Source: an uncultured virus (IMG/VR IMGVR_UViG_3300036766_002285)
Lineage: Duplodnaviria; Heunggongvirae; Uroviricota; Caudoviricetes
IMG/VR virus record: IMGVR_UViG_3300036766_002285
Strand: one strand, 5' to 3'
DNA: 30,978 bases
The notes under the pieces were generated by a model that searched no databases, was not told where the DNA came from, and worked only from the letters and a program-made list of their open reading frames with translations. Positions 1-23,800 of the stretch are shown here, piece by piece (positions within the stretch are counted from its first letter, which is position 1; every line of letters begins with the position of its first letter). The translations under genes were made by a program, and so were the position numbers.

Positions 1-1054
1 TATTAATTCTATTTTCAATAAGAGTTTGTAGTCTCGCACTGTTATGCTTAATAATATCTAATGCTTTTTTAACACCAGGTCTAGCATCACTCTTAAGATC
101 GTCTTCTAAGATCTCAAGATACCCCATAATTGCAGATAGAGGTTGGCGTAGTTCGTGACTAATATTAGCAATTTCTTTATTCTTGATAGTGTTAGCGACT
201 TCAAGTTTTTGTGTTAAGGCCGCATTTACGTCCATTTGCTGTTTTTGCTTTATTGTGCCAAGCTGCACCATACTAGCCAAAACTATTGTACGTAAAAACG
301 TGCGTTCAATTTCGCTCCACTCACGTGGTTTATCCAACATGGCGGCCCAAATCAGAAAATCTACTTTGGTTCCCTCTCCTTTAACCGTAGCTAGAAAACT
401 GCGATGATTAGCACATATGACCGGAACGAGTTCTATTTTGGTTAGGTCTCCTTTAGGATTAGTAGTATCCGTTACAGATAAAACACCACCATGTTCATTG
501 TAAACATAAGTAGCCATAGAAAATAATAATGCATCATCCATTTTTAGTTGTATGTCATCAATACGACCGCTAGGCTTTCTCTGCCATTGTTGGCTGCTTT
601 GTGGTGTGTCTGCTTGTGCAAAACTATACAGTACTACAGAATCAACCCCCAGAGCTTTACCAAGACCAGATAGTAAAGTTTCGGTAAGTAAACCGTCATC
701 GGAAGTCGAGCGTATTTTTAGTAGTAATGGTTTGCGTTGTTCATCTAAACGTGCTTGATGGTCACGTTCACTATCAATATAATCTATTAGTTCACTATGG
801 TCTTTACCATCGTTATCAATATTTTCTAAATTAGCAGGTCTGCTTAGAAAATATTTTTTTCGCAAAAATACCACCAGGGTATCTCCTAAAAAAACAAGAG
901 CAAACACAACCAGAAGTGTAGCTTTCATAAATACAGATCGCCCGGCTACGAAACTTACAACGACTGCTCCTAATAATATAAGCCAATTCCGCTGACGGCT
1001 ATTAAATACATTAATCAGTCTCTTTGTCACAACAGGTCTGTCTGCTTGTTTCAT
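1..1054 (-). CDS. GAF-domain sensor histidine kinase-like protein, C-terminus beyond window edge (at least 351 aa)
   Basis: Manual translation (absent from the ORF track because no stop lies in the window). ATG at 1054-1052 with an in-frame TAA shortly upstream. The protein begins MKQADRPVVTKR. Two hydrophobic segments follow (WLILLGAVVVSFVAG; VFMKATLLVVFALVFLGDTLVVFL, then RKK). A GAF-like region runs from LGKALGVDSVVLYSF to KPREWSEIERTFL. After a coiled coil comes the H-box ANISHELRQPLSAIMGYLEIL (His codon 155-157), then ALDIIKHNSARLQTLIENRIN to the edge. Confidence 0.88.
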   Translation of the reverse strand, partial: MKQADRPVVTKRLINVFNSRQRNWLILLGAVVVSFVAGRSVFMKATLLVVFALVFLGDTLVVFLRKKYFLSRPANLENIDNDGKDHSELIDYIDSERDHQARLDEQRKPLLLKIRSTSDDGLLTETLLSGLGKALGVDSVVLYSFAQADTPQSSQQWQRKPSGRIDDIQLKMDDALLFSMATYVYNEHGGVLSVTDTTNPKGDLTKIELVPVICANHRSFLATVKGEGTKVDFLIWAAMLDKPREWSEIERTFLRTIVLASMVQLGTIKQKQQMDVNAALTQKLEVANTIKNKEIANISHELRQPLSAIMGYLEILEDDLKSDARPGVKKALDIIKHNSARLQTLIENRIN

Positions 1055-1229: not shown

Positions 1230-2888
1230 CTATTTTGTTTTAATGATCCCATGTGAGATCGGCAGCCGCATAGTAACCAAGGTACCAGATGTTTCAAGTG
1301 ATTCAATCGACCAGGTTCCACCATGTGCACGCATTAAATAGTCTGCAATCATAAGACCAAGTCCAGATCCTTGAATAGCTCCAGCAATAGCATTACTCGA
1401 CCTGAAAAATCTAGTTCCGATGTGAGGCATGTCGGTTTTAACAATACCAATTCCAAAGTCTTGTATAGTTATAACAGCTTCTGACTTACCATTTTTATTT
1501 ATTTCTGATCTGGCCCCAATTTTTATTTCCCCATCAGGTAAACTGAATTTTACTGCATTTGACACAAAATTATTAAGTATTCGTAACATTTCCTCTGAAT
1601 CGCTCATTACCATTATAGGATCAATTCCAATGTCCGTAATAATTTTTATATCATGAAGCTGTGCGTCACTCTCTAGTTGTTCTATAGATTCTTTAATCAT
1701 TTTTCTTATATCGTGATTTTTCAGTGTAATATGCACATCATTATTGTCCATTCTAAGTACTGTAAGTACGTTATCGATAAGACCAGCCAACCGCGTATTG
1801 TTGCGCATAATCACTCTTGCCCAACCTTCGCGTTTTTCTTTCGTTACATTTTCTGTATTACTTGCTAACATTTCAGCAAATCCAGTAATAGAAGTAAGAG
1901 GGGTTCTAAGTTCGTGATTTACGGTGTTAATAAAGTTTGATTTTATGAAACGTATTCTTTTAATATGTTCCTCTGCATTTTCTTGTTGTTGAGCCAGATC
2001 ATTTATGGCGTGACCTATTACTCGAATTTCTGTAGGCCCGACACTAACTTCTGCTCTTTGTCCGGAATATCCTTGATATATCTTATTTGCAACATGACTC
2101 ATATTAACTAAAGGATTAGCAACGTCCGCGCCTTGATTAACTATCGTAAAAATAATAATAATAAAAGTAACAAAAATTATTAATAGCGATACAATTATTG
2201 TTTGCTGGCGAACTTTAGCAGCCGATTTTACAGATTTAGCGTTTGCTTCATCTAGTGACTGTATTACTTTTCCCATGTTCTCTCTTAGGCTACTAACCAC
2301 TTGAACTGCTATAAGTTGTGGATTAGCCTCAGGCGGACTGTCTGCCTTTACTGGAGTTGTTTGTTCTGTATAAAGTTCTAACAAAGTAGTTATAAGGATA
2401 TTAGATTCCTGTACTAATTGTATTAGGCCCGGATCGTCCACTTTATCTGCTTGCTGTTGCAGTGAAATAAGACTGCTATTTATCTTAACACTAGCCGCTT
2501 TTAGTTCTGTGATGTAACCAGTATCATTAGTTAGAAGAAAAGAGCTGGCTGCAGTTGAACTGGATATAGTTGCTAACATCATCGCATCGTTTGCTGCTCG
2601 CACGTCACTATATACTGCTGTTAGCTTATCTGCTTGTCCAGAGGTTACTGCAATTCCCACGCTTCCAGCTCCAGCTACGGCTAAAATCAAAAGGGCAGAC
2701 CCAAGCAGTACTCGTCGTACTCTTCGTCCTACAGTGTCACGGGTATTAAACTCAGAAGCTCCCTGAGGAGATAATGGTGAAAAACTTTCTTCAATGGGTA
2801 CATGACTAGCTACTGTTGGAGTTAGCATAATATTGTCTGAGCTTGCGACAGTTTTACCTAAAGAGGGTTGTTTGGCCATAGTATTCAT
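1230..2888 (-). CDS. Membrane sensor histidine kinase (TM-CHASE3-like helical sensor-TM-HAMP-HisKA-HATPase_c), 552 aa
   Basis: TM1 VLLGSALLILAVAGAGSVGIAV. Extracytoplasmic helical region with SFLLTNDTGYI, resembling CHASE3 GYLLTGD..YL. TM2 IIVSLLIIFVTFIIIIFTIV. HAMP NPLVNM...GPTEIRVIGHAINDLA. H-box NHELRTPLTSITGF, N-box ILNNFVSNAVKFS, G1 QDFGIGI, F-box RFFR, G2 GSGLGL. The start could alternatively be M4 or M21. Confidence 0.95.
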   Translation of the reverse strand: MNTMAKQPSLGKTVASSDNIMLTPTVASHVPIEESFSPLSPQGASEFNTRDTVGRRVRRVLLGSALLILAVAGAGSVGIAVTSGQADKLTAVYSDVRAANDAMMLATISSSTAASSFLLTNDTGYITELKAASVKINSSLISLQQQADKVDDPGLIQLVQESNILITTLLELYTEQTTPVKADSPPEANPQLIAVQVVSSLRENMGKVIQSLDEANAKSVKSAAKVRQQTIIVSLLIIFVTFIIIIFTIVNQGADVANPLVNMSHVANKIYQGYSGQRAEVSVGPTEIRVIGHAINDLAQQQENAEEHIKRIRFIKSNFINTVNHELRTPLTSITGFAEMLASNTENVTKEKREGWARVIMRNNTRLAGLIDNVLTVLRMDNNDVHITLKNHDIRKMIKESIEQLESDAQLHDIKIITDIGIDPIMVMSDSEEMLRILNNFVSNAVKFSLPDGEIKIGARSEINKNGKSEAVITIQDFGIGIVKTDMPHIGTRFFRSSNAIAGAIQGSGLGLMIADYLMRAHGGTWSIESLETSGTLVTMRLPISHGIIKTK

Positions 2889-2895
2889 CTACAAC

Positions 2896-5800
2896 CTATT
2901 GTTTAGCGTTATGCTGTTTTTGCACTCGAATTGTAGTTAACATACGATTTATAGGTATGTACAAGCCCATAAGCAGCATGAGAAGTATAAGTATTTGTAG
3001 CAATAAGGCATTATGGTTAACAGGCAGGTTATGGGCCGCTATTTCAGCTATAACTGTAGCACTCCCCAAGGTTGTTTTGGTATCCATATATACAGTTCCT
3101 CCACCACGCACCGCATAGAACTGGCAAGTACCTACACCTGTTCCATGGATAACTCCGGTTTCTTCGACAGTACAAATACTTGGGTCACTTACTCCAATAA
3201 AACGAGCACCGTCTTCACTTGATCCGCCTAGAGTCTTTGCCACAAGTACAGAGCCGGTTACTGTTCTAAAGTTTGAGAACTTCAGATCCATAGCGGCTTG
3301 TTCTTTTCTGATACCAAATAATGTAAGGTGACGAGTAAATATCACAACACTCCCGTCTTTTTCAGTAAAGAAGCCGTCTTGTTGTATCCTTGGTAGTTCT
3401 TTGGTTAACAGAGCAGGTATACTATTCCAGCTAATTTCATCAGTAGACCACGCAAGTATTCCACCTGCTGGCAATGCTGGCAAACTGATACTAATAGGCT
3501 CTATAAGCTTTGTTATAGCTACGCCAGTTGCGTCGTGAGCTTTTATGCTTACAGTCAAGAAACCCTGATCGAGAGCAACTTGTTCAGTGCGCTCACTCAT
3601 AGTCATATTCCAAACAGTACCCGCACTGCTGGCCGTGTCGGCGATATTAACTTCAACTACGATTCTCACATCAGTATTGGTGCTTGCTGGTGCTGCTAAT
3701 TCCATTACAGTTGCGTTATCAACGTGGGTAATTGTCACAACACTTTCTGGCGCAATCGTGGTCGTAGTTGTAGGAGGAACAGTAGTTGTAGTTGTTTGAG
3801 GAACAGTTGTTGTTGTACCGCTACCAGGTCCAGGAACTGTAGTAGTTGTGGTCTCAGGTATTGTGGTTGTAGGCTCTGGTACCACTGTTGTAGTTGTAGA
3901 TGGCTGTGCATTAGGTACTTCTATGGTTGTTGTGGTTTCAGGTACAACCGTAGTTGTCGTAGTTGGCTCTTCAGGTGCAACTGTTGTAGTAGTTTCAGGT
4001 GCAACTGTTGTTGTAGTAGTTTCACCCACAACTGTTGTTGTAGTAGTAGTTTCAGGCGCAACTGTAGTTGTCGTTGTAGTAGTAGGTGCAACCGTGGTTG
4101 TAGTTGTGGTTGTAGTAGGGGGTACAACGGGTGTTCCAGAAACTGTAGCAGATGTCACAGGGCTGCCAAAGCCGTTACTTGTGACACGGATTGCAACAGA
4201 GTAGCTAGTGTCATTTGTAAGACCACTAATAACAAAACCTCCAGCAGCCACAAGGCCAGTATCTACCCAGTTGCCACCGTCTAGTTGATATTCAATAAGG
4301 CTAATTGTTGAACCATTTGTTTGCACATTATATATAGTAGCATTTAATACGCCATCTCCAGCCGTAACGCTTACAGATGCAGTTGCTGCATTGGTATCTG
4401 TTGTGAACGATGAAATAGATCCAGTTGTTGTACCACTAACATTAGATGCTACAATTCGGAAATAATATGTAGTACCAGCGCTAAGTCCGGTAAGGGCATA
4501 AGACACAGCGGCTCCAGATTCTCCAGTCACCGGTGACTCACTAGCAGTTACTGTAGTGAATGTGCTTAAATTAGAGGTAGTACCATATCTAAATGATACT
4601 GTAGTTGATGCGCCGTGAGCATTTACAGTGCCAGTAAGTGTTGCAGTAGTAACACCTACATTTGTTGCAGCAGTACCACTAATAGAAGGGGGTTCAACAG
4701 GTATTACAGCAGAGGATACTGCTGACGCTGTACTAGTACCAGCAGCATTAGTTGCACTCACTCTAAAGGTATAGGAAGTACCATTGGTTAGACCAGTCAC
4801 CGTAGCGGATATTGATGCTGAAGTACCGTCAGCAAATGTGTGCCAAGACCCGTCATTGTATTCCACCAAATAATCAGTGATTACAGATCCGCCATTGAAA
4901 GATGGTGCACTCCAGCTTAGAGACACCGAAGTGTCCCCAGGTGTCCCAACAACGCTGGTTGGTGCATCTGGAATTGTAAATGGTGTTACAGAAGCCGAAA
5001 CACTAGAGTAGTTGCCCGCCCCAGCAGCATTAGTTGCACTCACTCGGAAAGTGTAAGCAGTACCGTTCGTAAGTCCAGTAACTGTAGCAGAAGTTGAAGT
5101 AGCAACCCCATCAGTGAAAGTTATATAGTTTGTACCATCTGTAGATGATTGTATTACATAGTCAGTGATTGCGGATCCACCAGTAGATGCCGAAGCTGAC
5201 CATGTTAGAGAAACTTGGGCATCACCAGGAGTGCCAACAACACTAGTTGGCGCACTTGGTGCCGCTATCGGAGTCACTGATGCGGATACGACAGACGCTA
5301 CACTAGTTCCAGCTACGTTTATAGCACTCACTCTAAAGGTATATGAAGTACCGTTAGTTAAGCCGGTAACAGTTGCACTTGTTGATGTTGAAGTACCATC
5401 AGCAAATGTGTGCCAAGTTCCATCATTGTATTCTACTAGGTAATCAGTAATGACAGCACCACCATTGCTTGCTGGAGCACTCCATGTTAGGGATACTAAA
5501 GAGGCTCCCGAAGTTCCAACTACATTTGTTGGTGCAGAAGCAACTGTAGCGGGCGTTACTGCATCAGATACCAATGAAACTATACCAGTACCCACAGCAT
5601 TAGTTGCACTCACACGGAAGGTATATGAAGTACCATTGGTTAGGCCAGTCACCATAGCCGATGTTGAAGTTGAAGTACCATCAACAAATACTATCCAGTC
5701 GGTTCCGTTCAAAGATGACTCTACCAAGTAGTCAGTAATGGCAGCACCACCATTACTTGCTGGCGCTGACCATGTTAGTGACACTAAGGTATTGCCTGAA

Positions 5801-8800
5801 GTGCCAACAACACTAGTTGGAGCGCCCGGCACAGTTTTTGGTATTACTGCAGCAGACGCAGTTGAGACCGCACCAGTACCTGCAGCATTTATTGCACTCA
5901 CTCTAAAGGTATATGATGTACCATTGGTTAGACCAGTCACCGTAGCTGAAGCTGAGGTAGATACGCCGTCTGTAAATGTTGCCCATGAAATACCATCATT
6001 AAATTCAACTAAGTAATCAGTAATGACAGCTCCACCATTTGATCCCGGTGCTGTCCATGTTAGAGATACTAATCCAGCTCCCGACGTTCCAGTAACAGAA
6101 GTTGGTGCGGAAGCAACTGTTCTTGGAATTACTGCAGCAGATACACTTGATGTAACACCAGTACCCGCAACGTTTGTCGCACTCACTCTAAAGGTATATG
6201 AAGTACCGTTAGTAAGTCCGGTCACTGTAGCTGCAGCTGTTGTTGAAGTACCATCAGCAAACACTATCCAATCCGTTCCATTCAAAGATGACTCTACAAC
6301 ATAATCAGTAATTGCTGACCCACCATTGTTAGCTGGAGCACTCCATGTTAGAGATACTTGTGTGTTATCTGGAGTTCCAACAACTGTTGTTGGTGCATTA
6401 GGTACTGTACGTGGTGTTACAGCAGACGATCCTGTTGATGAAGTCCCAGTACCTGCAATGTTTGTCGCACTCACTCTAAATGTGTAAGCAGTACCATTGG
6501 TTAGACCAGTTACTGTAGTTGAAGCTGAAGTTGAAACACCATCTGTAAATGTTGCCCACGATATACCGTCATTAAATTCTATCTGGTAATCAGTAATAGC
6601 AGACCCGCCATTACTTGCTGGAGCTGACCATGTTAGAGATGCTTGAGTATTGCCTGGAGTTCCAGACACAGCTGTTGGTGCATTTGGTGTTCCTACGGGC
6701 GTTACTGCATTAGATACACTTGAAGCACCACCAGTTCCTATAGCATTGGTTGCACCCACTCTAAAGGTATATGAAGTACCGTTTGTTAGACCAGTTACAG
6801 TTGCACTAGCAGTTGTTGAGGTACCATCAGCAAATGTTGCCCACGATATACCGTCATTAAATTCTATCTGGTAATCAGTAATAGCAGACCCGCCATTACT
6901 TGCTGGAGCTGACCATGTTAGAGACGCTTGAGTATTGCCTGGAGTTCCAGCAACAGAAGTTGGTGCACCAGGCACAGCAGCCGGTATAACTGCAGTAGAC
7001 ACTGCTGACACAGTTCCAGTACCTGCAATGTTTGTTGCACTCACACGGAAGGTATATGACGTACCATTCGTTAGACCAGTAACTGTAGCTGAAGTTGAGG
7101 TAGACACGCCGTCTGTAAATGTTGCCCATGAAATACCATCATTAAATTCAACTAGGTAATCAGTGATAGCAGATCCACCGTTAGATCCTGGAGCTGACCA
7201 TGTTAGAGAAACTTGTGAAGCACCTGGAGTACCTACAACGTTTGTTGGAGCACTTGGTGTAGTACGTGGAATTACAGCTGCTGACGCGCTTGATGTTGCT
7301 CCAGTACCAGCAGCATTAGTTGCGCTCACTCTAAAGGTATATGAAGTACCGTTTGTTAGACCAGTTACTGTTGCTGATGTTGATGTTGAAACTCCATCAC
7401 TAAATGTTGCAAAGCCTCCGCCGTCATTAAATTCAACTAGGTAATCAGTAATTGCAGACCCACCATTTGATCCAGGTGCTGACCATGTTAGAGAAACTTG
7501 TGTATTACCAGGAGTTCCTACCACGCTTGTTGGTGCACCCGGTGCTGTAGCAGGTGTTACAGCACTTGAAGCATTAGAATAGTTTCCAGCACCAGCAGCA
7601 TTTACTGCACTTACTCTAAAGGTATATGAAGTACCGTTAGTCAAACCAGTCACTGTAGCTGAAGTTGATGCTGAAGTACCGTCAGCAAAAGTAGTCCAGT
7701 TTGTTGCATCTGGAGAAGATTGTATTACATAATCAGTTATTGCAGACCCACCGTTATTAGCCGGAGCTGACCAGCTTAGAGACACTTGGGTGTTTCCTGG
7801 AGTACCAGTAACATTAGTTGGTACGCTAGGTACTGTTCGTGGGATAACTGCTGCTGATACCGCCGACACTGTACCAGTACCAGCAACGTTTATTGCGCTC
7901 ACTCTAAATGTATATGAAGTGCCGTTTGTTAGACCAGTCACTGAAGCCGATGCAGCCGATGAAACCCCATCAGTAAACGTAGCCCAGCTATTTCCGTCGT
8001 TAAATTCAACCAAATAATCAGTAATTGCAGATCCACCGTTGCTTGCTGGAGCACTCCATGTCAGAGATACTAAAGCAGCACCAGGAGTTCCTACCACGTT
8101 TGTTGGCGCACTTGGAGTATTTCTTGGGATTATGCTAGTAGACACGCTTGATGCAACACCAGTACCGGCAGCATTTATAGCACTCACACGGAACGTGTAA
8201 GCGGTACCGTTAGTTAGACCTGTTACTGTGGTCGACGCTGTAGCTGATACGCCATCTGTGAATGTTGCCCATGATATACCATCGTTGAATTCTACCAAAT
8301 AGTCAGTAATTGTGGCTCCGCCGTTACTTGCTGGAGCGCTCCACGTTAGAGATACTTGAGTGTTACCAGGAGTTCCAACAACAGATGTTGGTGCACCAGG
8401 TACAGCTGTAGGAATTACAGCTGCTGAGACAGCGGACACAACACCAGTACCGGCAGCATTAGTTGCACTCACACGGAATGTATATGAAGTACCATTTGTT
8501 AAGCCAGTCACTGTAGCACTTGTGGACGCTGATACACCATCTGTAAATGTTGCAAATCCTCCACCATCGTTGAACTCAACTAAGTAGTCAGTTATTGCAG
8601 ATCCACCAGTTGAAGCGGGTGCACTCCATGTTAGAGAAACTTGTGTGTCACCAGGAGTTCCAACAACAGATGTTGGTGCGCCCGGTACAGTTCTTGGTGT
8701 TACTGCAGCTGATACAACAGATGTTGCACCAGTCCCAGCAGCATTGCTTGCACTTACCCTAAATGTGTAAGCAGTACCATTCGTAAGGCCAGTTACCGTA

Positions 8801-11800
8801 GCTGATGCTGTTGTTGAAGTTCCATCAGCAAATACAATCCAGTTAGTATCATCTAGTGAAGACTCAATTATATAGTCAGTAATTGCAGAACCACCAGTTG
8901 AAGCTGGAGCAGACCATGTTAGAGAAACTTGGGTGTTACCTGGAGTACCAGCAACAGAAGTTGGTGCGCCAGGCACTGTACGTGGAATTACTGCAGCTGA
9001 TATTACAGACACTGTTCCAGTTCCAGCTGAGTTTATAGCACTCACTCTAAATGTGTATGAAGTGCCATTAGTTAAGCCGGTCACTGTAGCTGATGCTACT
9101 GCTGAAACACCATCAGTGAACGTTGCCCACGACACGCCATCATTATATTCAACTAAATAATCAGTGATAGCAGCTCCACCATTGTTTGCTGGAGCACTCC
9201 ATGTTAGAGATACTTGTGAAGCCCCAGGTGTACCAGAAACCGCTGTTGGAGCATCTGGAGTCGTAGCAGGAGTTACTGCACTAGATGCACTAGAATAGTT
9301 TCCAGCTCCAACAGCATTAGTTGCACTTACACGGAAAGTGTAAGCAGTGCCATTAACTAAACCAGTAACTGTAGCAGACGTTGCAGTAGATACTCCATCA
9401 GTAAAGGTTGTATAGTTTGTACCATCCGTAGATGACTGTATGGTGTAATCAGTTATTGCAGATCCACCGTTGCTTGCTGGAGCAGACCATGTTAGAGAAA
9501 CTTGGGTGTTACCAGAAGTTCCAACAACAGATGTTGGTGCACTTGGAGAAGTACGTGGTATCACACCAGCAGATACTGACGATGCTACACCGGTACCCGC
9601 TACGTTGGTAGCACTTACACGGAATGTATATGAAGTACCATTCGTAAGTCCAGTAACTGTAGCAGATGTTGAAGTAGATACACCGTCACTAAATGTTGCA
9701 AAACCTCCACCGTCATTAAATTCAACTAGGTAGTCAGTAATTGCAGATCCACCATTTGAAGCAGGTGCTGACCATGTTAGAGATACTTGTGAAGGGCCTG
9801 GAGTACCAGCAACAGATGTTGGAGCTCCTGGTACTGTACGTGGTGTTACTGCAGCTGACACAGTTGATAGTGCACCCGTTCCAGCAGCATTAGTTGCACT
9901 CACTCTAAATGTGTAAGCAGTACCGTTCGTAAGTCCAGTAATTGTTGTTGAAGCAGATGTTGAAGTACCATCAGCAAATGTTGCAAAACCTCCACCATCG
10001 TTAAATTCAACTAAGTAATCAGTAATAGCTGAACCACCAGTTGAGCCAGGCGCTGACCATGTTAGAGAAACTTGGGTGTCGCCAGGAGTTCCAGCAACAG
10101 ATGTTGGAGCACCTGGTACTGTACGTGGAATTACTGCAGCTGATACGCTTGACAATGCTCCAGTACCAGCAGCATTAATTGCACTCACACGGAATGTATA
10201 TGAAGTACCGTTTGTAAGTCCAGTAACTGTTGTTGATGCTGAAGTTGAAGTACCATCAGCAAATGTTGCAAAACCTCCACCGTCATTAAATTCAACTAGG
10301 TAGTCAGTTATAGCAGATCCACCAGTTGAAGCAGGCGCTGACCATGTTAGAGAAACCGAAGTGTTACCAGGAGTTCCAGCAACTGACGTTGGAGCACCCG
10401 GAACTGTACGTGGTGTTACTGCTGAAGATACAACAGATGTTGCACCAGTTCCAGCAGCATTACTTGTACTCACTCTAAAGGTGTATGCAGTACCATTAGT
10501 TAAACCAGTAACTGTAGCTGACGCTGAAGTTGAAGTACCATCAGCAAACACAATCCAGTTAGTGTCATCCAAAGAAGTCTCAATTACATAGTCAGTAATA
10601 GCAGACCCCCCATTACTTGCAGGAGCTGACCATGTTAATGACACTTGAGTGTTACCTGAAGTACCAGCAACAGATGTTGGAGCACCCGGTACTGTACGTG
10701 GGATAACTGCAGCGGATACAGCAGATACTGTACCAGTTCCAGCTGAGTTTATTGCGCTCACTCTAAAGGTATAAACTGTACCATTTGTTAAACCTGTGAC
10801 AGTTGCACTAGCTGAAGTTGAAGTACCATCAGCAAACACGATCCAGTTGGTGTCATCTAATGAAGATTCTACTACATAGTCAGTTATTGCAGATCCACCA
10901 GTATCTGCAGGCGCACTCCATGTTAGAGAAACTTGGGTGTTACCTGGAGTACCAACAACCGAAGTTGGAGCATCTGCAACAGCAGCAGGAGTTACTGAGC
11001 TAGAGACAGCAGACGCCACTCCAGTACCTGCAGCATTAGTTGCACTTACACGGAAAGTGTAAGGAGTACCGTTTGTTAGACCAGTAACTGTAGTTGATGT
11101 TGAAGTAGCTACTCCATCTGTGAAAGTTGCCCACGACACACCATTATTAAATTCTACTAAATAATCAGTTATAGCAGATCCACCAGTTGACGCTGGCGCT
11201 GACCATGTTAGAGCTACTGTAGTGTTTCCAGGAGTTCCAGCTACTGACGTTGGTGCGCCCGGTACTGTACGTGGGATAACTGCACTAGATGTACTCGACG
11301 GTGTTCCTGTACCAGCTACGTTGGTAGCACTTACACGGAAAGTGTAAGATGTACCGTTAGTTAGTCCAGTTACAGTAGCAGATGTTGAAGTAGATACTCC
11401 GTCAGTGAATGTCGCAAAACCTCCACCATCATTAAATTCTACCAAGTAGTCAGTGATTGCAGACCCACCTGTTGAAGATGGTGCACTCCATGTTAGAGAG
11501 ACCGATGCGTTTCCTAAAGTTCCAGACACGCTAGTTGGTGCTCCCGGTACTGTTCTTGGAGTTACGGCTGATGATGCAGTAGATACTGCTCCAGTACCAG
11601 CAGCATTGCTTGCACTTACTCTAAATGTGTAGGCAGTACCATTTGTTAGACCAGTAACTGTTGCACTAGCTGAAGGCGAAGTACCATCGCTAAATGTTGT
11701 CCAGTTAGTACCATTGATAGAATGTTCAATTACATAGTCAGTAATTGCTGATCCGCCATTTGATGCCGGAGCTGACCAGGTTAGAGAAACTTGTGAAGCA

Positions 11801-14800
11801 CCTGGAGCACCAACAACACTTGTTGGAGCATTTGGTACCGTTCTTGGTGTTACTGCAGCTGATACAACAGATGTTGCACCAGTTCCAGCAGCATTACTTG
11901 CACTTACCCTAAATGTGTAAGCAGTACCGTTTGTTAGCCCAGTAACTGTTGTTGAAGCTGTTGTTGATGTACCATCAGCAAATACAATCCAGTTGGTATC
12001 ATCCAAAGAAGACTCAATCACATAATCAGTAATAGCTGAACCACCAGTTGAAGCCGGAGCTGACCACGTAAGAGAAACTTGTGTATCTCCAGGAGTACCC
12101 GCAACAGAAGTTGGAGCACTTGGTACAGTTCTTGGAATTACAGCAGCTGACACAGTTGATGCAACACCAGTTCCAGCAGCATTAGATGCACTTACACGGA
12201 ACGTGTATGAAGTGCCATTGGTTAGACCAGTAACTGTTGTTGACGCTGTAGTAGAAACTCCATCAGCAAACGTTGCAAAACCTCCACCGTCATTAAATTC
12301 AACAACGTAGTCGGTTATTGCAGATCCACCAGTTGACCCAGGTGCTGACCAGCTTAGGGATACTTGAGTATTACCAGGAGTTCCAACAACTGATGTTGGG
12401 GCACTAGGTACTGTAGCTGGAATAATTGATGCAGATGCAGCAGATACTGCACCCGTTCCAGCAGCATTAACAGCACTCACACGAAACGTGTATGAAGTAC
12501 CGTTCGTAAGTCCAGTCACTGTAGCACTAGCTGAAGTTGAAGTACCATCAGCAAATACATGCCAAGACCCATCATTATACTCAACAACATAGTCTGTAAT
12601 TGCATTTCCACCATTAACTGCTGGTGCACTCCATGTTAAAGAAACTTGTGTGTCACCAGGAGTTCCAACAACAGATGTTGGAGCATTTGGTACCGTTCTT
12701 GGTGTTACTGCAGCTGATACAACAGATGTTGCACCAGTTCCAGCAGCATTACTTGCACTTACCCTAAATGTGTAAGCAGTACCGTTTGTTAGCCCAGTAA
12801 CTGTTGTTGAAGCTGTTGTTGATGTACCATCAGCAAATACAATCCAGTTAGTATCATCTAATGAAGACTCAATCACATAGTCAGTAATAGCTGAACCACC
12901 AGTAACTCCTGGTGCACTCCATGTTAGAGAAACTTGGGTGTTACCGGGTGTACCGGCTACTGATGTTGGAGCATTTGGTACAGTACGTGGTGTTACTGCA
13001 GCTGATACCGTAGAGGTGGCTCCAGTACCTGCAGCATTAATTGCACTCACACGGAATGTGTATGAAGTACCGTTCGTAAGGCCAGTAACTGTAGTTGCTG
13101 CTGATGCTGAAACACCATCTGTGAACGTTGCCCACGACACGCCATTATTAAATTCAACTAGATAGTCAGTGATAGCAGCTCCACCATTATTTGCAGGAGC
13201 GCTCCATGTTAGAGAAACCTGTGAAGCACCTGGAGTACCAGAAACAGCCGTTGGTGCATCTGGAGTTGTAGCAGGAGTTACAGCACTTGAAACAGTAGAA
13301 TAGTTACCAGCTCCAGCAGCATTAGTTGCACTCACACGGAATGTGTAAGCAGTACCGTTTGTTAAGCCAGTAACTGTAGTAGACGCTGAAGTAGATACTC
13401 CATCAGTAAAGGTTGTATAGTTTGTACCATCTGTAGATGATTGTATAGTGTAGTCAGTAATGGCAGATCCACCATTTGATGCAGGAGCAGACCAAGTTAG
13501 TGATACTTGTGAAGGGCCTGGAGTACCAGCAACAGATGTAGGTGCACTTGGAGAAGTACGTGGTGTTACGCCAGCCGATACAGTTGATAGTGCACCAGTT
13601 CCAGCAGCATTAATCGCACTCACTCTAAATGTGTGACTTGTACCGTTCACTAAACCAGTAACTGTAGCAGATGTTGAAGTAGATACTCCATCAGTGAATG
13701 TTGCCCAGCCTCCGCCATCATTAAATTCAACTAGGTAATCAGTAATTGCAGATCCACCATTTGATCCAGGAGCAGACCAAGTTAGTGATACTTGTGAAGG
13801 GCCTGGAGTACCAGCAACAGATGTTGGAGCTCCTGGTACTGTACGTGGTGTTACTGCAGCTGACACTGTTGATAGTGCACCCGTTCCAGCAACGTTACTT
13901 GCACTCACTCTAAATGTGTAAGCAGTACCGTTAGTAAGTCCGGTCACCGTAGTAGATGCTGAAGTTGAAGTACCGTCAGCAAACACGATCCAGTTTGTAT
14001 CATCCAAAGAAGATTCAACTACGTAATCTGTAATTGCAGATCCACCAGTAATTGCAGGCGCTGACCATGTTAGAGAAACTTGCGTGTCGCCAGGAGTTCC
14101 AGCAACAGATGTTGGTGCGTTCGGTACTGTTCTTGGAATTACTGCAGCTGAGACTGTTGACAATGCTCCAGTTCCAGCAGCATTAGTTGCACTCACTCTA
14201 AATGTATATGAAGTACCGTTAGTTAAAGAAGTTACAGTTGCTGATGTTGATGTTGAAACTCCATCACTAAATGTTGCAAAGCCTCCGCCATCATTAAATT
14301 CAACTAAGTAATCAGTAATTGCAGATCCACCATTTGATCCAGGTGCTGTCCATGTTAGAGAAACTTGTGTATTACCAGGAGTTCCTACCACGCTTGTTGG
14401 TGCACCCGGTACTGTTCTTGGAATTACTGCAGCCGACACACTCGATGCCACGCCAGTTCCAGCTACGTTTGTTGCACTCACTCTAAAGGTGTATGAAGTA
14501 CCGTTTGTTAGACCAGTTACAGTTGTTGAAGCTGTTGTTGAAGTACCGTCAGCAAATGTGTGCCAAGTTCCATCATTGTATTCTACCAAGTAATCAGTAA
14601 TTGCAGCTCCACCATTTGATCCCGGTGCTGTCCATGTTAGAGATACTTGAGTATCCCCAAGAGTACCAGCAACTGAAGTTGGCGCACCAGGTACTGTTCT
14701 TGGTGTAACTGCAGCTGATACAGTTGATGTAGTTCCAGTACCCGCAGCGTTGCTTGCACTCACTCGGAAGGTGTATGGAGTACCATTGGTTAGACCAGTG

Positions 14801-17800
14801 ACAGTTGCACTCGTTGATGTTGAAGTACCGTCGGCAAATACTATCCAGTTGGTATCATCCAAAGAAGATTCAATTACATAGTCAGTGATAGCTGATCCAC
14901 CAGTAACTGCTGGTGCCGACCATGTTAGAGATACTTGTGAAGAACCCGGAGTACCAGCAACTGATGTTGGCGCATTAGGTACTGTACGTGGTGTAACTGC
15001 GGCGGAAACAACAGATGTAGTTCCAGTACCTGCAATATTACTTGCACTCACACGGAATGTGTAAGCAGTACCGTTAGTAAGTCCGGTCACCGTAGTTGAA
15101 GCTGATGTTGAAGTACCGTCAGCAAACACTATCCAATTAGTGTCATCCAAAGAAGATTCAACCACGTAATCTGTAAGCGCAGATCCACCATTATTTGCAG
15201 GAGCTGACCATGTTAGCGATACTTGCGTGTTACCAGGAGTTCCGACAACTGATGTTGGCGCATTAGGTACTGTACGTGGTGTAACTGCGGCGGAAACAAC
15301 AGATGTAGTTCCAGTACCTGCAATATTACTTGCACTCACACGGAATGTGTAAGCAGTACCGTTAGTAAGTCCGGTCACCGTAGTTGAAGCTGATGTTGAA
15401 GTACCGTCAGCAAACACTATCCAATTAGTGTCATCCAAAGAAGATTCAACCACGTAATCTGTAAGCGCAGATCCACCATTATTTGCAGGAGCTGACCATG
15501 TTAGAGAAACTTGTGAAGGACCTGGAGTACCGGCAACAGATGTTGGAGCATTTGGTACTGTTCTTGGAATTACCGCAGCAGACACGCTCGATGCAACACC
15601 AGTTCCAGCTACGTTGGTTGCACTCACTCTAAAGGTGTATGAAGTACCGTTTGTTAGACCAGTAACTGTGGTTGAAGCTGTTGTTGAGACTCCGTCACTA
15701 AATGTTGCAAAGCCTCCACCATCATTAAATTCAACTAGATAGTCAGTTATTGCAGATCCACCAGTTGAAGCTGGCGCGCTCCATGTTAGAGAAACTGTAG
15801 TGTTACCTGGAGTACCCGCAACTGATGTTGGTGCACCCGGTACTGTACGTGGTGTTACACCAGCAGACACGCTCGATGCAACACCAGTTCCAGATACGTT
15901 TGTAGCACTTACACGGAAGGTGTAAGCAGTACCATTGGTTAAGCCTGTTACGGTTGTTGAGGCTGTAGCAGATACTCCATCAGTAAATGTAGCCCAAGTA
16001 TCACCATCATTAAATTCAACTAAGTAATCGGTAATTGCAGACCCACCATTAAATGCAGGAGCGCTCCATGTTAGAGATACTTGTGTATCACCAGGAGTTC
16101 CAGCAACAGATGTCGGTGCGTTTGGTACTGTACGTGGGATGACTGCAGAAGATACTGTTGAAGTAGCACCGGTACCAGCAGCATTAATTGCACTTACACG
16201 GAATGTGTGACTTGTACCATTTACTAAACCAGTAACAGTTGTTGCAGCTGTTGTTGATACGCCGTCTGTAAATGCTGCCCAACCTCCACCATCATTAAAT
16301 TCTACTAAGTAGTCTGTAATTACAGATCCACCAGTTGAAGCAGGTGCTGACCATGTTAGAGAGACTATTGTATTTCCTGGAGTACCAGCAACTGAAGTTG
16401 GCGCACCTGGCACTGTACGCGGCGTTACTCCAGCAGATACACTCGATGCAACACCAGTACCAGCTACGTTGGTTGCACTCACTCTAAATGTGTAAGCAGT
16501 ACCGTTCGTAAGTCCAGTAACTGTTGCACTAGCTGAAGTTGAAGTACCGTCCGCAAATACAATCCAGTTAGTGTCGTCCAGTGAAGATTCAATTACATAA
16601 TCAGTGATTGCAGACCCACCTGTTGAAGCAGGCGTTGACCATGTTAGAGAAACTTGGGTGTTACCAGCTGTTCCAGCAACAGAAGTAGGTGCTCCAGGTA
16701 CTGTGCGTGGAGTTACTCCAGCTGACACAGTTGATGTAGTTCCAGTACCAGCAGCATTAGATGCACTTACTCTAAATGTGTAAGCAGTACCGTTTGTTAG
16801 GCCAGTAACGGTTGTTGAAGCAGATGTTGAAGTACCATCAGCAAACACAATCCAGTTGGTATCATCTAGTGAAGATTCGATCACATAGTCTGTAATAGCT
16901 GATCCACCTGTTGAAGCAGGTGCTGACCATGTTAGAGAAACTTGTGTATTTCCCGGAGTACCAGCTACTGAAGTTGGAGCACCCGGTACTGTACGGGGTA
17001 TTACAGCTGCTGATGTTGTAGATACTGCTCCGGTACCAGCTACGTTAGTTGCACTTATTCTAAAAGTATATGAAGTACCATTGGTTAGCCCTGTTACCGT
17101 AGCAGATGTTGAAGTAGATACACCATCAGTAAAGGTTGCAAAACCTCCACCATCATTAAATTCTACCAAGTAATCAGTGATTGCACTCCCACCATTAACT
17201 GCTGGAGCACTCCATGTTAGAGATACTGTAGTGTTGCCAGGAGTACCGGCCACTGATGTTGGTGCATTAGGTACCGTACGTGGTGTAACTGCTGCAGACA
17301 CAGTTGACAATGCACCAGTACCTGCAGCATTGATTGCACTCACACGGAACGTGTGGCTTGTGCCATTCACTAAACCAGTAACTGTAGCAGATGCTGAAGT
17401 AGACACTCCATCAGTGAAGGTTGCAAAACCTCCACCGTCATTGAATTCAACTAAGTAATCAGTTATTGCTGAACCACCATTGACTGCTGGAGCTGACCAT
17501 GTTAGAGAAACTTGAGTGTTACCTGGAGTTCCTACAACAGACGTAGGAGCATCAGGCACTGTTCTTGGAGTCACGCTAGCTGATACAACAGATGTAGTTC
17601 CAGCACCTGCAACGTTACTTGCACTTACTCTAAATGTGTAAGCAGTACCGTTTGTTAAATCAGTTACCGTAGCAGATGCTGAAGTTGAAGTTCCGTCAGC
17701 AAACACGATCCAGTTGGTATCATCTAGTGAAGATTCGATTATATAGTCAGTAATTGCAGATCCACCATTATTTGCTGGAGCACTCCATGTTAGAGATACT

Positions 17801-20800
17801 TGAGTGTTACCTGGAGTACCAACAACAGATGTTGGTGCATTAGGTACTGTTCTTGGAGTCACGCTAGCTGATACAACAGATGTAGTTCCAGCACCTGCAA
17901 CGTTACTTGCACTTACTCTAAATGTGTAAGCAGTACCGTTTGTTAAACCAGTTACCGTAGCAGATGCTGAAGTTGAAGTTCCGTCAGCAAACACGATCCA
18001 GTTGGTATCATCTAGTGAAGATTCGATTATATAGTCAGTAATTGCAGATCCACCATTATTTGCTGGAGCACTCCATGTTAGAGATACTGTAGTGTTGCCA
18101 GGAGTACCGGCCACTGATGTTGGTGCATTAGGTACCGTACGTGGTGTAACTGCTGCAGACACAGTTGACAATGCACCAGTACCTGCAGCATTGATTGCAC
18201 TCACACGGAACGTGTGGCTTGTGCCATTCACTAAACCAGTAACTGTAGCAGATGCTGAAGTAGACACTCCATCAGTGAAGGTTGCAAAACCTCCACCGTC
18301 ATTGAATTCAACTAAGTAATCAGTTATTGCTGAACCACCATTGACTGCTGGAGCTGACCATGTTAGAGAAACTTGAGTGTTACCTGGAGTTCCTACAACA
18401 GACGTAGGAGCATCAGGCACTGTACGTGGCGTAACTGCAGCCGATACTGTCGAAGCCGAACCAGTACCAGCAGCATTGATTGCACTTACTCGGAACGTGT
18501 GACTGGTACCATTCACTAAACCTGTAACTGTAGCAGATGTTGAAGTAGATACTCCATCAGTGAAGGTTGCAAAACCTCCACCATCATTAAATTCTACCAA
18601 GTAGTCAGTTATTGCTGATCCACCATTGTTTGCTGGAGCACTCCAGGTTAGAGAAACTGATGTGTTACCAGGAGTACCTACAACTGATGTTGGTGCGTTA
18701 GGTACTGTACGTGGTGTAACTGCTGCAGACACGGTTGATGTTGCCCCAGTTCCAGCAACGTTGCTTGCACTCACTCTAAATGTATATGCAGTACCGTTCG
18801 TAAGTCCGGTTACTGTTGTTGATGTTGAAGTTGAAGTTCCGTCAGCAAATACAATCCAGTTAGTATCATCTAGTGAAGATTCAATTACATAGTCAGTGAT
18901 TGCAGATCCACCATTGTTTGCTGGAGCTGACCAGGTTAGAGAAACTTGGGTGTTACCAGGAGTACCGGCCACAGAGGTCGGTGCATTAGGTACCGTACGT
19001 GGTGTTACTGCAGCTGACACTGTTGATGCAGCACCAGTACCTGCGGCATTAATTGCACTTACTCTAAATGTGTGGCTTGTGCCATTCACTAAACCAGTAA
19101 CTGTAGCAGATGTTGAAGTAGATACTCCATCAGTGAAGGTTGCAAAACCTCCACCATCATTAAATTCTACCAAGTAATCAGTGATTGCACTCCCACCATT
19201 GTTTGCTGGAGCAGACCATGTTAGAGAAACTTGGGTGTTACCAGGAGTACCGGCCACTGATGTTGGTGCATTAGGTACAGTACGCGGTGTAACTGCTGAA
19301 GACACGGTTGATGTTGCCCCAGTTCCAGCAACGTTGGCTGCACTCACTCTAAATGTGTAAGCAGTACCATTCGTAAGTCCGGTTACTGTTGTTGATGCCG
19401 ATGTTGAAGTACCGTCGCTGAATGTTATCCAGTCAGTACCATTAATTGAATGCTCAATAATATAATCTGTAACAGCAGAACCACCATTTGATCCTGGTGC
19501 GCTCCATGTTAGAGATGCCTGTGTGTTACCAGGAGTACCAACTACTGATGTTGGAGCCCCCGGTACTACTGCTGGAGTCACGCTAGCTGATACAGAAGAC
19601 GCAACACCAGTACCCGCTACGTTTACTGCACTCACTCTAAATGTATAAGCAGTACCGTTTGTAAGTCCAGTTACAGTTGTTGAAGCTGTAGTAGAAGTTC
19701 CATCAGCAAATACTATCCAGTTGGTGTCATCTAGCGAAGATTCAATTACATAATCAGTAATCGCACTTCCACCAGTTGAAGCCGGTGCTGACCATGTTAG
19801 AGAAACTTGAGAGTTTCCTAAAGCTCCTACAACAGATGTTGGGGCACCTGGTACTGTACGTGGAATTACGCTAGCTGACACTGTCGATGGAACACCAGTT
19901 CCAGTAGCATTGGTTGCGCTTACTCTAAATGTGTATGAAGTACCATTCGTTAGACCAGTTACAGTTGTCGAAGCTGTAGTTGAAGTACCATCAACAAAAG
20001 TGTGCCAAGTGCCATCATTGTATTCTATTTCATAATCAGTAATTGCAGAGCCACCAATATTAGAAGGTGCTGACCATGTTAGAGAAACTTGGGTATTACC
20101 TGGAGTACTAACCACTGATGTTGGAGCACCAGGCACCGCTACAGGCGTTACTGAAGAAGATGTAGCTGACACTGCACCAGTTCCAGCGACGTTTATTGCA
20201 CTTACTCTAAATGTGTAAGCAGTACCGTTCGTAAGTCCAGTTACTGTTGTTGAAGCTGATGTTGAAACCCCATCAGTAAATGTGTGCCATGTTCCGTCAT
20301 TATATTCAACTAAGTAGTCAGTAATTGCTGATCCGCCATTTGATGCCGGAGCTGTCCATGTTAAATACACTAAAGCGTTGCCCGGATCCCCCACAACACT
20401 TGTTGGTGCTCCCGGAACTGTACGTGGAGTAACTGAACTAGAGACTGTTGATGTTGCACCAGTACCTGCAGCATTAGACGCACTTACTCTAAATGTGTAA
20501 GCGGTACCGTTCGTAAGTCCAGTTACAGTTGTTGACGCTGTAGTAGAAACTCCATCAGCAAATACGATCCAGTTAGTGTCGTCCAATGAAGATTCAATTA
20601 CGTAGTCCGTGATTGCAGACCCACCTGTTGAAGCGGGCGCTGACCAGGTTAGAGAAACTTGGGTGTTACCAGCTGTTCCAGCAACAGAGGTTGGTGCTCC
20701 AGGTACTGTACGTGGTGTCACACTAGCAGATACAGTTGACAATGCTCCAGTACCTGCAGCATTGCTTGCACTCACTCTAAAGGTATAAGCAGTACCATTT

Positions 20801-23800
20801 GTTAGACCAGTTACAGTTGTTGATGCTGTAGCAGAAGTACCATCAGCAAACACGATCCAGTTAGTATCGTCTAGTGAAGATTCAATTACATAATCAGTAA
20901 TTGCACTTCCACCAGTTGAAGCCGGTGCTGACCATGTTAGTGCTACTTGTGAAGGACCTGGCGTTCCAGCAACAGATGTTGGGGCACCTGGCACTGTACG
21001 TGGGGTAACCGATGCTGACACTGTGGAACTTGCACCAGTACCTGCGGCATTAATTGCACTTACTCTAAATGTGTGACTTGTACCATTCACTAAGCCTGTT
21101 ACTGTAGCAGATGTTGAAGTAGATACTCCATCAGTGAAGGTTGCAAAACCTCCACCATCATTAAATTCAACTAGGTAGTCTGTGATGGCTGAACCACCAT
21201 TAACTGCTGGAGCACTCCATGTTAGAGAAACTTGGGTGTTACCAGGAGTTCCTACAACAGAAGTTGGTGCGTTAGGTACTGTACGTGGTGTAACGGCTGA
21301 AGACACAACAGATGTTGCCCCAGTACCTGCAACGTTACTTGCACTCACACGGAAAGTGTAAGCAGTACCGTTAGTTAGACCTGTCACTGTTGCACTTGCA
21401 GATGTTGAAGTACCATCAGCAAACACAATCCAGTTAGTATCATCTAGTGAAGATTCGATTACATAATCAGTGATTGCTGAACCACCATTAACTGCTGGCG
21501 CTGCCCATGTTAGAGAAACTTGAGTGTTACCAGGAGTACCTACAACTGATGTTGGTGCGTTAGGCACTGTACGTGGTGTAACTGCAGCTGATACCGCGGA
21601 TGGAGTTGTATCAACACCATTAATACTATTCATTTGGAAATAATAAGCTGTACCATTTGTTAAACCGGTTTTAGTATAGGACACATCAGATGCGGTTCCC
21701 ATAGTGTTGAAAGTACATCCAACGGACATATCGACATCCGTGCAAGTAACTAACTGTAATGAAGTTCTAGGAGCAGCTGCAGAAGTAGATCCGTTAGTCC
21801 ATGTTAGCGATATTTGTGTATTACCTGGAGTTCCGGCCACACTTGTAGCAGCACTAGGGGCCGCAATAGGAGTTTTTGAAGCAGATGTTGCCGACATAGC
21901 TCCAGTTCCAGCGGCGTTAATTGCACTTACACGGAACGTGTATGAAGTACCATTAGTTAAACCTGTTACAGTTGTACTAGTTGCTGTAGATGTACCATCA
22001 GCAAAAGTATTCCATGTTCCATTATTATACTCTACCAAGTAGTCAGTGATTGCAGACCCGCCATTAGATCCTGGAGCACTCCATGTTAGAGAAATTTGTG
22101 AAGTTCCTACAGTACCCACAACAGACGTCGGAGCATCAGGCACTGTACGTGGCGTAACTGCAGCCGATACTGTCGAAGCCGAACCAGTACCAGCAGCATT
22201 GATTGCGCTCACTCTAAATGTGTGACTTGTACCATTCACTAAACCAGTAACTGTAGCAGATGTTGATGTAGATACACCATCAGTAAAGGTTGCAAAACCT
22301 CCACCATCATTAAATTCAACTAGGTAGTCTGTAATTGCTGATCCGCCATTTGATGCCGGAGCTGACCATGTTAGAGAAACTTGGGTGTTACCAGGAGTAC
22401 CAACTACTGATGTTGGTGCGTTAGGTACTGTACGTGGTGTAACGGCTGAAGACACAACAGATGTTGCCCCAGTACCTGCAACGTTACTTGCACTCACACG
22501 GAAAGTGTAAGCAGTACCGTTAGTTAGACCTGTCACTGTTGCACTTGCAGATGTTGAAGTACCATCAGCAAACACAATCCAGTTAGTATCATCTAGTGAA
22601 GATTCGATTACATAATCAGTGATTGCTGAACCACCATTAACTGCTGGCGCTGCCCATGTTAGAGAAACTTGAGTGTTACCAGGAGTACCTACAACTGATG
22701 TTGGTGCGTTAGGCACTGTACGTGGTGTAACTGCAGCAGACACAGTTGACAATGCACCAGTACCTGCAGCATTGATTGCACTTACTCTAAATGTGTGACT
22801 TGTACCATTCACTAGACCAGTAACTGTAGCAGAAGTTGAAGTTGATACACCATCAGTGAATGTTGCAAATCCTCCACCATCATTAAATTCAACTAAGTAA
22901 TCAGTTATTGCAGATCCACCTGTTGACGCTGGAGCCGACCATGTTAGAGATACCTGGGTGTTACCTGGAGTACCGGCAACTGCTGTTGGAGCACCCGGTA
23001 CTGTACGAGGAGTTACGCCAGCTGACACTGTTGATACAGCACCAGTACCTACAGCATTGATTGCACTTACTCGGAACGTGTGACTTGTACCGTTTACTAA
23101 ACCTGTAACAGTTGCAGATGTTGAAGTAGATACTCCGTCAGTGAATGTTGCAAATCCTCCACCATCATTGAATTCAACCAGGTAATCTGTGATTGCACTT
23201 CCACCATTAACTGCTGGAGCTGACCATGTTAAAGAAACTTGAGTGTTACCAGGAGTACCTACAACTGCTGTTGGTGCGTTAGGCACTGTACGTGGTGTAA
23301 CTGCTGCAGACACGGTTGATGTTGTTCCAGTACCTGCAGCATTACTTGCACTCACTCTAAAGGTATAAGCAGTACCATTAGTTAAACCAGTAACTGTTGT
23401 TGAAGCAGATGTAGAAGTACCATCAGCAAACACAACCCAGTTAGTATCGTCTAGTGAAGATTCAATTACATAATCAGTGATGGCAGATCCACCAGTTGAA
23501 GCTGGTGCTGACCATGTTAGAGAAACTTGTGTATCGCCAAAAGTGCCAGCAACAGAAGTAGGTGCTCCAGGTACTGTGCGTGGAGTTACTCCAGCTGACA
23601 CTGTCGATGGAACACCAGTTCCAGTAGCATTAGATGCACTCACTCTAAATGTATAAGCAGTACCGTTAGTTAGGCCAGTAACTGTTGTTGAAGCAGATGT
23701 TGAAGTACCATCAGCAAACACAATCCAGTTGGTATCATCTAGTGAAGATTCGATTACATAGTCTGTGATTGTAGATCCACCAGTTGAAGCAGGTGCTGAC

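Follow-up and report, generated by a model that had tools for sequence, protein, structure and literature searches.

Self-cleaving domains of the GAIN type were, to our knowledge, long held to be confined to eukaryotes. In 2012 the ZU5, GPS and Nup98 domains were united, and related ZU5 domains were noted in large surface proteins of bacteria that also carry adhesion modules (Zhang et al., 2012; PMC3482391). A preprint of May 2026 describes the Microbial Autoproteolysis INducing (MAIN) domain, a microbial GAIN domain with Bacillus subtilis YfkN as its prototype (Brogan and Rudner, bioRxiv 10.64898/2026.05.12.724683). Prokaryotic GAIN-like autoproteolytic domains, which a first-pass annotation of the DNA studied here had mentioned, are thus on record in both sources. 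We analysed a stretch of 30,978 nucleotides (IMG/VR record IMGVR_UViG_3300036766_002285, the whole of which is called the window), in which a minus-strand gene encodes a giant surface protein. We propose, with a probability of about 0.7, that residues 9077–9234 of this protein form a microbial GAIN_B/ZU5-type (MAIN-like) autoproteolytic domain predicted to be cut at L9218∣T9219. The kind is already known from the 2026 preprint and the 2012 prediction; new are a divergent Actinomycetota family, an anchor composed of an Ig-like domain plus a transmembrane (TM) helix, and a conserved kinase partner.

As reported in the preprint, YfkN is cleaved at HF∣S, as determined by Edman degradation; S1346A blocks the cut and Thr at this position restores it. 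The YfkN fragments co-purify, and sodium dodecyl sulfate or heat frees the ectodomain. Cleavage is also reported for four further MAIN domains; nearly all of the several others assayed were cut. A set of ~15,000 MAIN proteins was collected by PSI-BLAST from YfkN, and in virtually all of them a signal peptide comes first, followed by adhesion or enzymatic domains, the MAIN domain and an anchor (10.64898/2026.05.12.724683).

The giant open reading frame (ORF) covers 2896..30978 on the minus strand (9360 codons plus stop) in a window with 44% GC. From the ORF list, the translations and the Pfam fn3 and TIG matches (searched over residues 1–1600 and the last 834), the protein comprises a leader, TIG domains with ~79 Fn3 modules, a Thr-rich stalk, the MAIN-like domain, an Ig-like domain, a TM helix and a basic tail. 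The leader, read from the sequence and not by a signal-peptide predictor, has a K-rich start, a hydrophobic core and an ALA-AAT end. Pfam recognised TIG and many fn3 domains, and an Fn3 strand motif matched 79 times. The last 284 residues had no Pfam or NCBIfam match (searches on the C-terminal 301 residues returned nothing relevant), and phmmer with these 284 residues against the Protein Data Bank (PDB) gave a single chance-level row, Afp7, at E 0.96.

In the region of the MAIN-like domain (158 residues, window 3277..3750, minus strand) the translation reads ...DGSVVIFTRHLTLFGIRKEQ..., and the string ...DGSVVIFTRHLTLFGIRK... is present in the giant protein. The predicted autoproteolytic site, H9217-L9218∣T9219-L-F (H141, L142 and T143 in domain numbering), lies at 3316..3330 on the minus strand, with His9217 encoded by 3330-3328, Leu9218 by 3327-3325 and Thr9219 by 3324-3322, so that the predicted scissile bond falls between window positions 3325 and 3324. 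By translation, both the motif and the residue numbers given in the first-pass annotation are right (window 3330-3316), and its view that the motif closes a β-rich domain without the GPS cysteines agrees with a model of ten strands and one 5-residue helix and with the absence of any Cys from the 158 residues. Other parts of that annotation needed adjustment. The limits found here are slightly wider than its 3310-3740. Of the two Trp residues it considered conserved, W9184 is kept in at least 90% of relatives and is invariant in alignments A2, A3 and A5 (as domain W108), but W9176 of 'AWS' is replaced by F, Y, H or S. It had placed the motif near the membrane anchor; an anchor does follow, but the TM helix (9325–9343) begins 106 residues past T9219, with an Ig-like domain between.

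The pattern H-x-[ST]-x-F occurs once in the 9360 residues, against 0.11 occurrences expected from composition. On its own this is weak evidence; judged by the homologues, it is conservation that makes the motif real. With the 158-residue segment as query, 236 homologues were found at E ≤ 0.001 among 1.84 billion representatives. The conservation alignment was built from the best 150 of the 236; its 154 rows comprise the query, these hits and, for some of them, a second match to the domain. The His at 141 is kept in 137 of the 154 rows and Thr or Ser at 143 in 136 (121 T, 15 S), an interchange as expected for a catalytic hydroxyl. The flanking positions are similarly constrained, with T139 in 144 rows, F145 (+2) in 137 and G146 (+3) in 125; the residue between His and Thr is Leu in 92 rows and Ala in 49.

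An AlphaFold2 (AF2) model of the 158-residue domain, computed from a 50-sequence alignment, has a predicted local distance difference test (pLDDT) score of 89.3 and a predicted template modelling score of 0.84. It is a ten-strand sandwich whose last strands span residues 135–141 and 144–149; therefore the last strand but one closes with H141, and the turn is made by L142-T143. The five best Foldseek matches had weak E values of 0.02–0.04 and were the CD97 GAIN domain (E 0.02, probability 0.99, TMq 0.48), an ankyrin ZU5 domain, the CELSR1 GAIN domain (probability 1.00), BAI3 and BAI2. VIA-align, which is independent of Foldseek, was run over 48,161 representative chains, and its top eight were all ZU5 or GAIN, with scores of 8.2 for two erythroid ankyrin ZU5 domains, 7.8 for CD97, 7.5 for UNC5b, 7.2 for CELSR1, 6.9 for CD97 again and 6.7 for BAI3. 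Two axonemal proteins (6.5) took ranks 9 and 10, and lower scores were obtained for GPR110 (6.1), Gpr126 (5.9), glycoside-hydrolase end domains (5.8–5.2), Nup98 (5.0), CARD8 (4.8) and NLRP1 (4.3). In the ESM Atlas the closest clusters were unnamed (0.90–0.91) and the nearest named one was ZU5 at 0.87, taken as a lead only. On the strength of the model, residues 9077–9234 very probably adopt a GAIN_B/ZU5-type fold. Both structural expectations of the first-pass annotation, a GAIN or ZU5 fold and an HLT in the turn before the last strand, are borne out in the AF2 model, whose best structural matches are ZU5 and GAIN_B.

The register of the site was read from the first and last aligned residues only, and it assumes an ungapped last hairpin. 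Alignments with chains of GPR110, Gpr126, GPR97, GPR56, latrophilin-3 and NLRP1 stop at model residue 142; these are chains of the N-terminal-fragment type, which we take to end at the cleavage site. In the cleaved structure of latrophilin-1 (4DLQ chain A), residues 677..837 align to model residues 1..142. Since H836 of ADGRL1 is at GPS-2 and T838 at GPS+1 (PMC13062082), L142 of the model corresponds to the P1 residue and T143 to the nucleophile. Model residues 1..152 align to 720..921 of uncleaved BAI2 (8OEK), in which S912 is reported as the nucleophile, and to 356..540 of CD97 (9MQR), which carries S531A at the GPS (PMC12519206); in both alignments the distance from the nucleophile to the end is 9, which equals 152-143. 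L9218∣T9219 thus falls on the scissile bonds of latrophilin-1, BAI2 and CD97, in agreement with the earlier likening of the motif to the HL∣T site of the GPS.

Compared with MAIN domains, the window domain has the same GAIN_B-like sandwich with HX(S/T), X being hydrophobic, in the turn before the last strand. It also shares the placement of the site between a large adhesion ectodomain and a surface anchor, the secretion leader and the proposal of force-triggered release. It differs in having HL∣T where HXS is reported for Bacillota, and in belonging to a divergent family, which we liken to MAIN by fold, motif and architecture and not by sequence comparison with YfkN. Its anchor is an Ig-like domain with a TM helix, in contrast to the sortase, SLH and wall-binding anchors of the preprint. 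The family was found in metagenome-assembled genomes (MAGs) of Actinomycetota, a phylum that the main text of the preprint does not name, and the TM-anchored subfamily has a conserved downstream sensor kinase.

With the GAIN domains in adhesion G protein-coupled receptors (latrophilin-1 4DLQ, CD97 9MQR, BAI2/3 and CELSR1) the predicted domain shares the subdomain-B fold, HL∣T at the equal structural position, a last strand that would be kept in the sheet after the cut, and Fn3 or Ig adhesion repeats upstream. Unlike eukaryotic GAIN, it has no helical GAIN_A, as the domain directly follows a Thr-rich linker and its model holds one 5-residue helix. It has neither the GPS cysteines nor a Pfam GPS/GAIN match, and it is followed by an Ig-like domain of ~85 residues and a single TM helix, whereas eukaryotic GAIN domains of the receptor or PKD1 type come immediately before a membrane domain of seven (or 11) TM helices. 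The ZU5 superfamily (ankyrin, UNC5, PIDD, the FIIND of NLRP1 and CARD8, and Nup98) shares the ZU5 β-sandwich fold. In contrast to it, the window domain does not match the PF00791 sequence model; eukaryotic ZU5 domains are cytoplasmic, and the polymorphic-toxin ZU5 domains of 2012 form the N-terminus of RHS proteins.

From the conserved motif, the fold, the location and register of the site and the overall architecture, we infer cleavage, association of the fragments and release of the ectodomain by force, with the chemistry taken from work on GAIN and MAIN. After export and folding, His9217, as general base, would take a proton from the side-chain hydroxyl of Thr9219. Thr9219, as nucleophile, would attack the carbonyl of Leu9218 in an N-to-O acyl shift; the ester would then be hydrolysed, and the chain would be cut in the tight turn that precedes the last β-strand. 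That strand (TLFGIRK...) would still be hydrogen-bonded within the sandwich, and the ~9,200-residue Fn3/TIG ectodomain would therefore stay non-covalently attached to a membrane stub of 142 residues, which consists of the last strand, the Ig-like domain, the TM helix and the tail. A pulling force on the adhesin could then detach the ectodomain.

Several results weigh against such a self-cleaving domain. With the model as query, Foldseek found no PDB match at E ≤ 0.001. None of 14 family members matched Pfam GPS or GAIN at E ≤ 1, and one of the 14 matched Pfam ZU5 (PF00791), at E 0.051, the window's own domain being without a match. Profiles searched against the PDB gave no GAIN or ZU5 structure at E ≤ 10; the A1 profile matched the Ig-like domain only and the A5 profile nothing below E 0.28. 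The His is absent from 17 of the 154 rows. According to two reports (PMC13062082, PMC12488864), GAIN domains that retain HxS/T are not always cleaved, and BAI2 is described as uncleaved despite S912. A domain of ZU5/GAIN_B fold that does not cut itself, serving as a rigid juxtamembrane spacer or, like the ZU5 domains of ankyrin and UNC5, as a protein-binding module with a purely structural TRHLTxFG, appears rather unlikely, given that the His and the Thr/Ser two residues on rank with the best-conserved positions in the family and sit exactly at the GAIN/MAIN catalytic location. Neither the use of both Thr and Ser at the nucleophile position nor the cleavage of nearly all bacterial MAIN domains assayed in the preprint (10.64898/2026.05.12.724683) favours that account.

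That HLTxF is a chance string in an ordinary Ig-like sandwich, unrelated to GAIN or ZU5, is hardly credible: the motif is conserved among the homologues, the top fold matches cluster in one superfamily and the register of the cleavage site is consistent. In other bacteria it is established that a dedicated protease can free giant adhesins in a regulated way, and a separate protease of the LapG/LapA or sheddase style could free the ectodomain, with the motif as its recognition site. We regard this as improbable, as the 2.9 kb that follow the adhesin gene showed no gene for a protease and the site is buried in a β-turn of a folded sandwich, where intramolecular chemistry is typical but the substrate site of a protease is not. 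Cleavage of the SEA or SEAL type was weighed for the window domain by analogy only; no SEA fold was among the structural matches listed, and no search was made for a G∣SVVV-type motif. As far as computation goes, the autoproteolysis proposed in the first-pass annotation is supported.

Downstream of the MAIN-like domain, a Big_2-like Ig domain covers approximately residues 9232–9315 (3034..3285, minus strand). It was recognised from the profile of the A1 alignment against the PDB, which matched 7quz in its Big_2-type domain (E 4.5e-6) and also 7x30 (E 8.7e-4), from Pfam Big_2 matches directly after the MAIN-like domain in three homologues (P0010, P0014 and P0031), and from an invariant Cys pair, C9269 and C9285 (C193 and C209 in alignment A3). 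The C-terminal TM helix spans residues 9325–9343 (2950..3006, minus strand), as judged from the translation, its position and alignment A3, in which L249, Q252 and L256 of this region are invariant. A second AF2 model, of the 284-residue C-terminus from six sequences (A3-based; pLDDT 56.7, poor over the Ig-like domain), was used for the terminal helix only and has a helix at 246–283 at low confidence. The protein ends in a short basic tail (residues 9344–9360; 2899..2949, minus strand), which the positive-inside rule predicts to be cytoplasmic. The Gln in the middle of the TM helix, Q9328, is present in six of six members of the TM-anchored subfamily, which suggests a helix-helix contact inside the membrane. 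The string 'LPVNH' before the helix was considered as a sortase signal and ruled out, as relatives have no LPXTG-like motif there.

The family was also sampled with a degenerate DNA pattern over one genome per species, which gave 15 loci, 13 of them confirmed by phmmer: 12 in Actinomycetota of various ranks (four in Ilumatobacteraceae) and one labelled Bacteroidetes. Such a pattern catches only sequences that keep DG-x5-TRHLTxFG, and the invariance of the motif in alignment A5 is therefore partly by construction. A first metagenome scan with a single protein gave 113 pattern matches, none of which was confirmed. Among 23 homologues scanned with Pfam, 18 had hits; TIG, cadherin-like, LRR_5, Flg_new, fn3, β-helix and ice-binding domains were found in the ectodomains, and no hit covered the MAIN-like domain itself. 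By a simple hydropathy test, 13 of the 150 homologues have a hydrophobic C-terminal helix; among the rest, OmpA-like or other β domains form the C-terminus, and two bear the name LPXTG protein in the source database entry. These anchor counts are rough because many homologues are fragments. In P0035, P0083, P0111, P0112, L008, L012 and L014 a C-terminal OmpA-like peptidoglycan-binding domain (…LNRRVEIW…) replaces the TM anchor, with PF00691 precomputed for two of them. Many of the other homologues have a basic β-rich domain (…VKLNKSGDA…) at the C-terminus that may serve as another anchor to the wall. The contig of L011, labelled 'Bacteroidetes bacterium', is equal in length (19,427 bases) to the metagenome contig behind L016. 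Its adhesin C-terminus, TIG protein and kinase closely resemble their counterparts in an Ilumatobacteraceae MAG (L009), and its bin label may be wrong.

The adhesin gene is followed on the same strand by a gene for a sensor histidine kinase, HK1 (552 residues; 1230..2888, minus strand), which starts 7 nt past the adhesin stop, with no terminator-like site between the two on the minus strand. According to Pfam and an alignment of orthologues, HK1 has two TM helices around a periplasmic CHASE3-like domain, followed by HAMP, HisKA and HATPase domains. Its orthologues are 37–39% identical to it over the full length; in five of them Pfam found HisKA and HATPase in all, and CHASE3 and HAMP in four each. 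The window's own HK1 had no CHASE3 match at E ≤ 0.01. A second histidine kinase, HK2 (2..1054, minus strand; Pfam HisKA), runs off the end of the window after 351 residues; its counterpart in L015/L018 combines GAF and kinase domains and is preceded by a stand-alone receiver domain.

An HK1 orthologue lies downstream on the same strand in all seven loci seen of the TM-anchored subfamily, whose adhesin C-termini are 33–41% identical to the window's in alignment A3 and 35–43% by tblastn (metagenome loci). It is directly adjacent in four loci and separated by one TIG-repeat frame in three, and in two or three of the seven the adhesin stop and the kinase start overlap. Beside the window, the adjacent cases are L019, with an ATGA overlap, L017, with an overlap of 4 nt between the adhesin stop and the first listed kinase start (TTG), and L018 (the L015/G002 sequence), where the first listed start (GTG), a putative one, lies 50 nt inside the adhesin ORF. 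The kinase follows one 1290-residue TIG-repeat gene in L016 (the L011 contig) and a TIG frame in G001 (L009; E 6.5e-126), and it lies ~2 kb downstream in G412. Next to the pair, L018 has the stand-alone receiver and GAF kinase, whose place in L019 is taken by a protein of 199 residues, a kinase and an ORF resembling a receiver. A DNA-binding output domain was not observed. Six members without the TM anchor (L001, L002, L008, L012, L013 and L014) have no kinase next door, and at L005 an unrelated LuxR-type regulator is found with a kinase.

Among 301 genomes sampled from the family of G001, two have a full-length TM-type C-terminus. Four have the kinase orthologue (E ≤ 1e-90): in two it is adjacent to that adhesin, and in the other two it lies at a contig edge with the upstream side cut. 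In two further samples of 301 genomes each, one drawn from G001's class and one from G002's order, the seed genome alone was recovered. Adjacency at ~40% identity, the overlap of start and stop, and the joint rarity of the two genes point to one operon of the adhesin and HK1. The sampled genomes seem fairly close kin, because they are shared between samples, and inherited gene order may therefore account for the pairing. In two genomes of the Ilumatobacteraceae family (L025 1489-4584 of G412, and G001:C66 with an open frame of 1874 residues) the kinase frame runs upstream without a stop into the TIG-repeat protein; in L016 a stop codon in the same frame separates the two. The continuous frame may reflect a genuine fusion, read-through or faulty assembly. 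A fused protein would have an unusual topology, with the TIG repeats ahead of the kinase's cytoplasmic N-terminus.

The pairing with a sensor kinase allows a tentative and on balance doubtful extension by analogy, in which the adhesin stub would signal through HK1. Force would strip off the ~9,200-residue ectodomain and leave a stub with an exposed last strand (TLFGIRK...), the Ig-like domain and a TM helix with its invariant Gln; the CHASE3 kinase, if co-transcribed with the adhesin, would read the stub and relay the signal to the products of the receiver and GAF-kinase genes close by. The adhesin and HK1 would then form a mechanosensory two-component system, a bacterial counterpart, built from separate parts, of the 'cis' signalling arm found in adhesion G protein-coupled receptors. 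This extension is drawn from the kinase synteny in seven of seven loci, the joint rarity in 301 genomes and the preprint, which states that the anchored MAIN fragment has so far been linked to no signalling (10.64898/2026.05.12.724683). The kinases may instead merely regulate or accompany the adhesin gene. A literature search for MAIN or GAIN-like domains tied to histidine kinases returned nothing relevant by title or abstract.

The nearest precedent for signalling by the stub is the SEAL domain of RsgI anti-sigma factors (PMC10556640, PMC10328401). As described there, SEAL, like the domain proposed here, lies outside the cytoplasm of bacteria and is autoproteolytic; its fragments remain associated, and their separation by force is proposed to start transmembrane signalling. 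In contrast to the window domain, SEAL has a SEA-like fold and another cleavage motif, and its signal passes through intramembrane proteolysis of the same chain and not through a neighbouring histidine kinase.

With its domain read as MAIN-like, the window would extend the kind to (i) a sequence-divergent family of uncultured Actinomycetota; (ii) one of the largest proteins likely to be encountered at all, with 9,360 residues and ~79 Fn3 repeats; and (iii) a purely membrane-anchored form. A built-in break point in a giant adhesin would, if true, decide the attachment of the cell to surfaces. The strict pairing with a sensor kinase is the more interesting point, as it offers a testable candidate for signalling by the stub and a possible prokaryotic analogue of tethered-agonist mechanosensing.

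In the N-terminal part of the giant protein, three copies of a ~130-residue module (…TWTLAF.N.VALAAA.TITAVFGS…C…C…) occupy residues ~35–430 (window ~29700-30880), upstream of the TIG domains, and no Pfam family has its best stretch there. The ~79 Fn3 repeats (window ~4130-28130) are very similar and alternate between subtypes, for example '...IESSLDDTNW...' and '...VEFNDGGGF...'. Fn3 arrays are prone to collapse or expansion in assembly, and the length of 9360 residues is therefore provisional, subject to confirmation by long reads. The low-complexity Thr/Pro-rich stalk (residues 8951–9076; 3751..4128, minus strand) joins the last Fn3-like module to the MAIN-like domain, and we read it as an extended, possibly glycosylated linker. 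Its 126 residues include TTTTxVAPE-like repeats and have the look of a mucin-type spacer.

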